A DNA stretch of 64,000 nucleotides, from assembly GCF_003334305.1 (NCBI RefSeq), contig NZ_QOWS01000010.1, one strand, 5' to 3'. The position numbers were made by a program, and so were the translations under genes. The stretch is from Escherichia coli (GTDB lineage: Bacteria; Pseudomonadota; Gammaproteobacteria; Enterobacterales; Enterobacteriaceae). Position 1 is the stretch's first letter. Each line of letters opens with the position of its first letter. A model generated the notes under the pieces. It worked only from the letters and a program-made list of their open reading frames with translations, had not been told where the DNA came from and ran no database searches. This document shows, one piece after another, positions 15,347 to 16,184 of this stretch.

Positions 15347-15658
15347 ATGCCTGGAAAAACAGCCACTCTACCCGATGTCGATAAAACGCTGAAAAATGCG
15401 CGGGTCGAACTCAAAACTAGTCCCGACGCCAAAAACAAACTTCGTGAAGCTGCGCAAGCCGTTGGGGTAGATTTAAGCGCTTTTATTTTGAGCGCTGCTA
15501 TGGAACGCGCCGAAAGTGTGCTTGATAACCAACGTCGCCGTGAGCTTTCGAATCAAAGCTGGGAACTGATGAACCAACTCATCGCTGAACCTGCTCAACC
15601 GACGCTCGCCCTCAAGGCGTTAATGAAAAGGAAAAACAGCGATGGTCGACAAGCATGA
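15347..15658 (+). CDS. Putative type II antitoxin, DUF1778/RHH-like (TacA/AtaR/KacA-type partner of GNAT toxins)
   Basis: 103-aa ORF MPGKTATLPDVDKTLKNARVELKTSPDAKNKLREAAQAVGVDLSAFILSAAMERAESVLDNQRRRELSNQSWELMNQL...; good SD AAAGAGG 8 nt upstream; 3' end overlaps the GNAT gene by 17 nt; ORF-track frame extends further upstream (125 aa) but lacks an SD. Confidence 0.8.
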   Translation: MPGKTATLPDVDKTLKNARVELKTSPDAKNKLREAAQAVGVDLSAFILSAAMERAESVLDNQRRRELSNQSWELMNQLIAEPAQPTLALKALMKRKNSDGRQA

Positions 15659-16184
15659 AGAGATTACTCTGCCCATAGTCCTCTCCTGTAATTATCAGTC
15701 TGATATTACTTATCCTGGGCAAAAACAGTTTGATTGCGGTAACCCTGTTATCGATAAATTTGTACGCGCATCGCTAAAGAAAAGTGTGCGTAATAGCGAC
15801 TGTGCGGCTAAAGCACTTATTGACAGACAAAGTGGTGAACTGATCGGCATCTGTACTTTTACGGCATATTCGCTGGAAAAACAACGCGTTTCTGGCGTCC
15901 TTCAGGGTTCACAACCTTCAGAAATTGGTGTTGTCAGATTAGTCATGTTGGGGGTAGCACGGAAGTATCAAAAGCGGGGCTTTGGTCAGGACCTACTATG
16001 TGATTTTTTTGAACATGTAAAAATAATTCACCAGGCATTACCAATTAAAGGGGTTTATCTTGATGCTGACCCTGCCGCCATTAATTTTTATGCTCGTCTC
16101 GGCTTTGTTCAGCTTTCAGCGACACCAAATGCTTTTGGTGCTGTACCTATGTTTTTGGCGATTCAGCATATTCTCGCGGCTTAG
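15642..16184 (+). CDS. Putative GNAT-family N-acetyltransferase toxin (TacT/AtaT/ItaT/KacT-like)
   Basis: 180-aa ORF with N-terminal FDCG motif (KQFDCGNPVIDKF), acetyl-CoA motif QKRGFGQ (Q-x-x-G-x-G) and C-terminal NFYARLGF typical of GNAT toxins; SD AAGGA ~10 nt upstream. Confidence 0.85.
   Translation: MVDKHEEITLPIVLSCNYQSDITYPGQKQFDCGNPVIDKFVRASLKKSVRNSDCAAKALIDRQSGELIGICTFTAYSLEKQRVSGVLQGSQPSEIGVVRLVMLGVARKYQKRGFGQDLLCDFFEHVKIIHQALPIKGVYLDADPAAINFYARLGFVQLSATPNAFGAVPMFLAIQHILAA

Follow-up and report, generated by a model that had tools for sequence, protein, structure and literature searches.

ItaRT of Escherichia coli HS is the closest described system to the locus analysed here. When expressed alone in E. 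coli MG1655, the toxin ItaT arrested growth and blocked [35S]-Met incorporation within 5 minutes, and its toxicity was abolished by co-expression of the antitoxin ItaR or by mutation of the catalytic residue Tyr150 (Y150A) (Wilcox et al. 2018, PMC6125619). ItaR and ItaT co-purify in a stable, apparently stoichiometric complex (PMC6125619). A fragment of ~172 bp from upstream of the genes gave ~40-fold reporter activity in PitaRT-galK, and this promoter was repressed when ItaR was combined with ItaT, either wild type or Y150A, whereas ItaR alone had no such effect (PMC6125619). Repression is independent of ItaT catalysis, and ItaR is not acetylated by ItaT (PMC6125619).

With respect to the substrate, the same study reports that ItaT acetylates Ile-tRNAIle exclusively in vitro, with translation blocked at Ile codons (PMC6125619). 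Ribosome profiling with ItaT showed pausing at AUU/AUC codons, and Ile-tRNA(GAU) was therefore designated the main physiological target; overexpression of peptidyl-tRNA hydrolase (Pth) counteracts ItaT toxicity, which placed the block at elongation (PMC9177977). Residues V36, I37, F40 and M102 form the hydrophobic aminoacyl pocket of ItaT (Zhang et al. 2020, PMC7367177). The specificity of the enzyme is broader than its name, with Ile-tRNAIle as the main substrate and Val- and Met-tRNA as weaker ones, all of these data coming from overexpression.

Identity of the module

The window, by which we mean the whole stretch of DNA analysed (64,000 nucleotides), contains two overlapping genes and a ribosome-binding site at the positions given here.

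15336..15341, plus strand: Shine-Dalgarno sequence of itaR, AAGAGG, 5 nt ahead of the ATG
15347..15658, plus strand: itaR, antitoxin gene; ATG 15347 to TGA 15658; 103 aa, 11.36 kDa, pI 9.7; RefSeq WP_001297137.1
15642..16184, plus strand: itaT, GNAT toxin gene; ATG 15642 to TAG 16184; 180 aa, 19.80 kDa; RefSeq WP_000227784.1

The two reading frames share 17 nt (15642-15658). A first-pass annotation had proposed ORFs of 103 and 180 aa with an overlap of this length, and both are present where it had placed them. A TTG start farther upstream (15281, 125 aa) was rejected for itaR in view of the published mass of 11.4 kDa and the RefSeq length of 103 aa; it was further ruled out by the Shine-Dalgarno sequence, which precedes ATG 15347, and by the location of the TTG within one of the palindromes described below (palindrome 2). 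The module also contains short ORFs (41-57 aa), nested or on the opposite strand, which were taken as chance ORFs.

The segment 15347-16184 is identical at 838/838 nt to itaR-itaT of E. coli HS (NC_009800.1 511857-512694, the EcHS_A0501 region), and both translations are identical to their E. coli HS counterparts. The 180-aa toxin matches PDB chain 7BYY_A at 179/180 residues (E 4.3e-118). The single mismatch is Gly115, which is Asp in the structure; 7BYY is ItaT(G115D) of E. coli HS, and the substitution was engineered (PMC7367177). Calculated masses of 11.36 kDa for ItaR and 19.80 kDa for ItaT agree with the reported 11.4 kDa and 19.8 kDa (PMC6125619). Furthermore, the residues reported as functional in ItaT, namely Y150, G115, V36, I37, F40 and M102, are all in place. 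The nucleotide identity, the match to 7BYY, the masses and the key residues together indicate that the module is itaR-itaT itself, and we put the probability that this locus represents itaRT, a type II toxin-antitoxin operon of the Escherichia coli chromosome, at about 97%, with no result speaking against the identification. The ItaRT found here is thus already known rather than new, the same sequence having been used for the biochemistry and the crystal structure of ItaT. The first-pass annotation had recognised no exact family member and had regarded the tRNA target and the phenotype as unknown, a statement that no longer holds, since the module is ItaRT and both its target and its toxicity are published.

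The same full identity over the module is found in many genomes of B1-type STEC and commensals, so the strain analysed here need not be HS. An exact or near-exact itaRT is present in about one in four complete E. coli genomes, yet among the matches listed the RefSeq names are mostly generic ('GNAT family N-acetyltransferase', 'DUF1778 domain-containing protein'); the identification is a gain for annotation.

Two conserved palindromes flank the itaRT promoter

Upstream of itaR lies a single sigma-70-like site, the only one of the region, with a 17-19-nt palindromic site on each side of it.

15221..15237, no strand: palindrome 1, TACGGCTAATAACCGTA, putative operator half; ends 4 nt upstream of the -35 hexamer
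15242..15270, plus strand: itaRT promoter, sigma-70-type; TTGACA, 17-nt spacer, TAAATT; 10/12 positions matched
15276..15292, no strand: palindrome 2, TACGGTTGATAGCCGTA, putative operator half; begins 5 nt past the -10 hexamer and covers the expected start of transcription

The palindrome-flanked promoter of the first-pass annotation is therefore borne out. By chance, 0.01 copies of TACGG-N7-CCGTA would be expected in the 64-kb window; there are two, and at least two copies were found in 0/100 shuffles. The pattern is absent from three K-12 loci, ~64 kb in total.

To relate the palindromes to published data, we mapped the -183 to -11 promoter fragment of PMC6125619 to 15164-15336 by counting from the itaR ATG; this ATG-based mapping is an assumption, as the paper counts from the 'expected transcription start site'. 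Both the promoter and the palindromes fall inside this inferred ItaRT-repressed fragment. The main text of Wilcox et al. (PMC6125619) makes no mention of an operator, palindrome or inverted repeat, and a search of the literature yielded nothing relevant on operators or palindromes of itaRT, which is weak negative evidence.

When plasmids were searched with tblastn, orthologous gene pairs came up in three further genera.

Citrobacter freundii: toxin 142/180 and antitoxin 83/103 residues identical to E. coli
Rahnella victoriana: toxin 123/180 and antitoxin 67/103 residues identical to E. coli
Serratia marcescens: toxin 113/180 and antitoxin 65/103 residues identical to E. coli

Exactly two TACGG-N7-CCGTA palindromes lie upstream of the genes in all three loci (3/3). 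The layout shared by E. coli and the three other genera consists of site 1, 4-6 nt, TTGAC-N, a 17-nt spacer, TA-N-AT-T, 5-9 nt and site 2. In E. coli and the three orthologous loci, the centre-to-centre distances between the palindromes are 55, 55, 61 and 57 bp, and the N7 spacers and the inter-site sequence have diverged among the four.

The Citrobacter freundii pair, the closest orthologue outside E. coli, is immediately preceded by a gene with the annotation 'baseplate protein' on plasmid NZ_CP145667.1, a 97-kb, non-mobilizable replicon (positions 402-2046 of the retrieved segment). This replicon may be a phage-plasmid, in which case the itaRT family may travel on phage-like elements.

Conservation of the palindrome pair across unrelated genomic contexts suggests that the two TACGG-N7-CCGTA sites are probably operators of ItaR or ItaRT. 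We lean towards the further view that the pair represents a cis-regulatory layout, possibly an undescribed one, maintained among the itaRT orthologues of four genera. The palindromes might instead be sites of another regulator or remnants of mobile-element ends, given that they lie only ~20 nt inside the left edge (15203) of the accessory island that carries the module and that their spacing differs between taxa. This alternative is unlikely, however, because the palindromes travel with itaRT orthologues on the E. coli chromosome and on three different plasmids, and are always placed alike with respect to the -35 and -10 hexamers. Moreover, the related ribbon-helix-helix antitoxins AtaR and KacA bind palindromic operators in their own promoters. 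Also arguing for operators, the palindrome-containing fragment is the one repressed by ItaRT (PMC6125619).

A natural variant could serve for testing operator function. E. coli CM2 carries an allele of the module at 97% identity, in which the first half-site of palindrome 2 has a T-to-C change (CACGG) and a further G-to-C change lies just past palindrome 1 (positions 2375-2450 of the retrieved segment). This natural mismatch in site 2 counts against the operator reading. In the ItaT of CM2, the C-terminal third is altered at four residues, Q131R, A151T, T161R and A164V. The conserved operator-like palindromes offer a concrete and cheap target for work on toxin-dependent repression.

The module resides in an accessory island

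Apart from one island, which houses itaRT, the window is collinear with K-12 MG1655 400019-461976 at ~99% identity. BLAST comparison with K-12 MG1655 and inspection of the neighbouring genes defined the following features.

15178..15201, plus strand: cyoE intrinsic terminator hairpin, a terminator-like site; last K-12-shared sequence before the island and its upstream boundary
15203..17572, no strand: accessory island of 2,370 bp, replacing ~98 bp of the K-12 cyoE-yajR intergenic region
16240..17175, minus strand: Sel1-repeat (TPR-like) gene, 311 aa, three Sel1 repeats, convergent with itaT

Collinearity with K-12 breaks at 15202, directly after the cyoE terminator hairpin. The island contains itaR, itaT and the convergent Sel1-repeat gene, and its content is the same in E. 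coli HS, E2865 and CM2. The N-terminus of the Sel1 protein (MLTKRILFSVMLIVSPSVVASEKA) looks like a signal peptide when judged by eye. A match of this protein to PtuA in PADLOC (E 2.4e-4, no stretch passing alone) was set aside as noise from the repeats. Upstream of the Sel1 gene there is ~400 bp of very AT-rich DNA (16240-17572 region). Where itaT and the Sel1 gene converge, a GC-rich hairpin is present between their stop codons, at 16218-16234 (CTCAGCC-GGG-GGCTGAG, a 7-bp stem with a 3-nt loop); it has a T-run on neither strand and was unflagged by the terminator scan, and its function could be weak bidirectional termination or stabilisation of mRNA.

Among 5426 complete E. coli genomes, itaRT was found in 1369 (~25%), in 1239 of them at 99% identity or higher. 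Of the places found, 1369 are chromosomal and one is in a plasmid record, so that itaRT is effectively a single-copy chromosomal locus. The Sel1 segment was detected in 1373/5426 of the genomes and is shared with itaRT in about 1,360-1,370. The near-identical counts indicate that the island behaves as one unit. A functional link between the Sel1 gene and itaRT is not evident, and we regard the gene as a co-inherited neighbour rather than as part of the toxin-antitoxin mechanism.

Instead of stress tolerance or persistence, the main role of ItaRT might be to keep the cyoE-yajR island stable, or it might be abortive infection against phages, in which a phage that shuts off host transcription would thereby set ItaT free. 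In line with this, the module is carried by only 1369/5426 genomes, at one chromosomal site inside a 2.37-kb island, and orthologues occur on plasmids, one of them beside the 'baseplate protein' gene. Phage defence is, in addition, a function of many type II toxin-antitoxin systems. However, PADLOC returned no match for ItaR or ItaT, the ItaT papers examined contain no phage data, and the island holds no other defence genes, only the Sel1-repeat protein; we consider such a main role quite improbable. Island stabilisation, stress tolerance and phage defence are all candidates for the physiological role of itaRT.

Several further features of the window were recorded. By K-12 collinearity, lon, clpX and clpP (window 1-8100) lie 8-15 kb upstream of itaRT. 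The Lon, ClpX and ClpP proteases usually degrade type II antitoxins, but their closeness to itaRT is almost certainly fortuitous, a product of how the core genome is ordered. An Rfam gathering scan of the whole window found no RNA family in or near the module; its sole match was the sraA sRNA at 3161-3256 on the plus strand (106.7 bits), which is clpX-lon intergenic by K-12 collinearity. The only other structural differences from K-12 MG1655 are at 25972-25973 (yajO-dxs intergenic), where K-12 has ~123 bp extra, and at 52846-52943 (mak-araJ intergenic), where it has ~100 bp extra in a repeated segment. Both are probably REP-type intergenic repeat indels.

Family assignment of ItaR and ItaT

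In a Pfam search, ItaR matched the TacA1/DUF1778 family (PF08681) over residues 19-96 with an E value of 1.3e-17. Compared with antitoxins of solved structure, residues 14-96 matched KacA (E 3.6e-11) and AtaR (E 8.8e-09). ItaR is a protein of the DUF1778/ribbon-helix-helix family, whose members join a ribbon-helix-helix N-terminus to a toxin-binding C-terminus. In the NCBIfam scan, it gave only a sub-threshold match to MobA, at 23.7 bits against a cut-off of 80.

ItaT contains FDCG at residues 30-33, QKRGFG at 110-115 in the acetyl-CoA loop and FYARLGF at 149-155, all three of which had been picked out by the first-pass annotation. Its Pfam matches are Acetyltransf_7 (1.6e-07), Acetyltransf_10 (1.2e-06) and Acetyltransf_1 (1.8e-05), and among toxins of solved structure it matched KacT (2.7e-06), AtaT (~1e-05) and TacT (5FVJ, 6e-04). 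The Pfam results for both proteins confirm the earlier reading of a GNAT toxin with a DUF1778/ribbon-helix-helix antitoxin, and the matches to solved structures, together with nucleotide identity to a validated system, substantiate an antitoxin-first module of the TacAT/AtaRT/ItaRT/KacAT type. Motif-based recognition of GNAT toxins from sequence alone thus works.

No specific model for ItaT was found in the NCBIfam scan, and no defence-system model in the PADLOC scan matched ItaR or ItaT. These blanks are due to the content of the libraries and are no sign of a different function. At the level of sequence, the module shows the following hallmarks of the GNAT/DUF1778 (TacAT-like) type II family: a GNAT fold with a Q/RxxGxG/A-type motif, a TacA1/DUF1778 antitoxin, an antitoxin-first overlapping bicistron and one upstream promoter, the last bracketed by two putative palindromic operators. 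An ordinary non-toxic GNAT (a metabolite or antibiotic N-acetyltransferase) that merely sits beside a small DNA-binding regulator, in no toxin-antitoxin relation, could be read from the RefSeq name of the 180-aa protein, which is only 'GNAT family N-acetyltransferase', from the modest generic GNAT Pfam matches (E 1e-5 to 1e-7) and from the missing family matches in NCBIfam and PADLOC, but the probability of this reading is negligible, as the partner of the GNAT protein is a TacA1/DUF1778 antitoxin and experiments on the identical protein have demonstrated its toxicity, its neutralisation by the product of the upstream gene and its acetylation of aminoacyl-tRNA (PMC6125619, PMC7367177, PMC9177977).

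Published mechanism and proposed mode of repression

With the module being itaRT, the mechanism published for the identical sequence applies. The single sigma-70 promoter (15242-15270) drives itaR first, with itaT translationally coupled to it through the 17-nt overlap. ItaT acts as a dimeric GNAT acetyltransferase that N-acetylates Ile-tRNAIle (GAU isoacceptor) and, more weakly, Val-tRNAVal and Met-tRNAMet. Because N-blocked aminoacyl-tRNA is unusable in elongation, ribosomes stall at Ile codons and growth stops; the damaged tRNA can be recycled by peptidyl-tRNA hydrolase. Tight binding of ItaR to ItaT neutralises the toxin, and the promoter is repressed by the ItaRT complex, not by ItaR alone.

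To this we add a proposal for the promoter, in which one ribbon-helix-helix dimer of ItaR would occupy each palindrome and an ItaT dimer would supply cooperativity between them. Two sites that bracket the RNA polymerase contact region, together with the requirement of the toxin for repression, suggest such ItaT-mediated cooperativity. If true, two ItaR dimers bridged by an ItaT dimer would explain the absence of repression by ItaR alone. The variable spacing of the palindromes among the four genera fits poorly with one rigid bridging complex.

Comparison with related systems

TacA-TacT of Salmonella Typhimurium is the founding member of the family, and the Pfam antitoxin family matched by ItaR is named for TacA. 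TacT acetylates its own antitoxin and thereby modulates repression, whereas ItaT leaves ItaR unacetylated (PMC6125619). TacT is Gly-specific in vivo (PMC9177977). AtaR-AtaT of E. coli O157:H7 and KacA-KacT of Klebsiella pneumoniae share the GNAT toxin/DUF1778 antitoxin architecture with ItaRT and, like it, act by N-acetylation of aminoacyl-tRNA and use the toxin-antitoxin complex as an autorepressor. In sequence, however, they are distant from ItaRT, with E values of 1e-5 to 3e-6 for the toxins and of 3.6e-11 to 8.8e-09 for the antitoxins. Unlike ItaT, AtaT prefers Met-tRNAfMet in vitro, and its in vivo preference is for Gly and others; AtaT falls in clade A and ItaT in clade B, and the preferred tRNA of ItaT differs from those of AtaT, TacT3 and AtaT2 (PMC9177977). 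The likeness to ItaRT of E. coli HS, by comparison, covers the whole module, its upstream region and its position among cyoE, the Sel1-TPR gene and yajR, and over the 2,420 bp from cyoE to yajR the two sequences have 3 differences, all within or upstream of the Sel1 gene.
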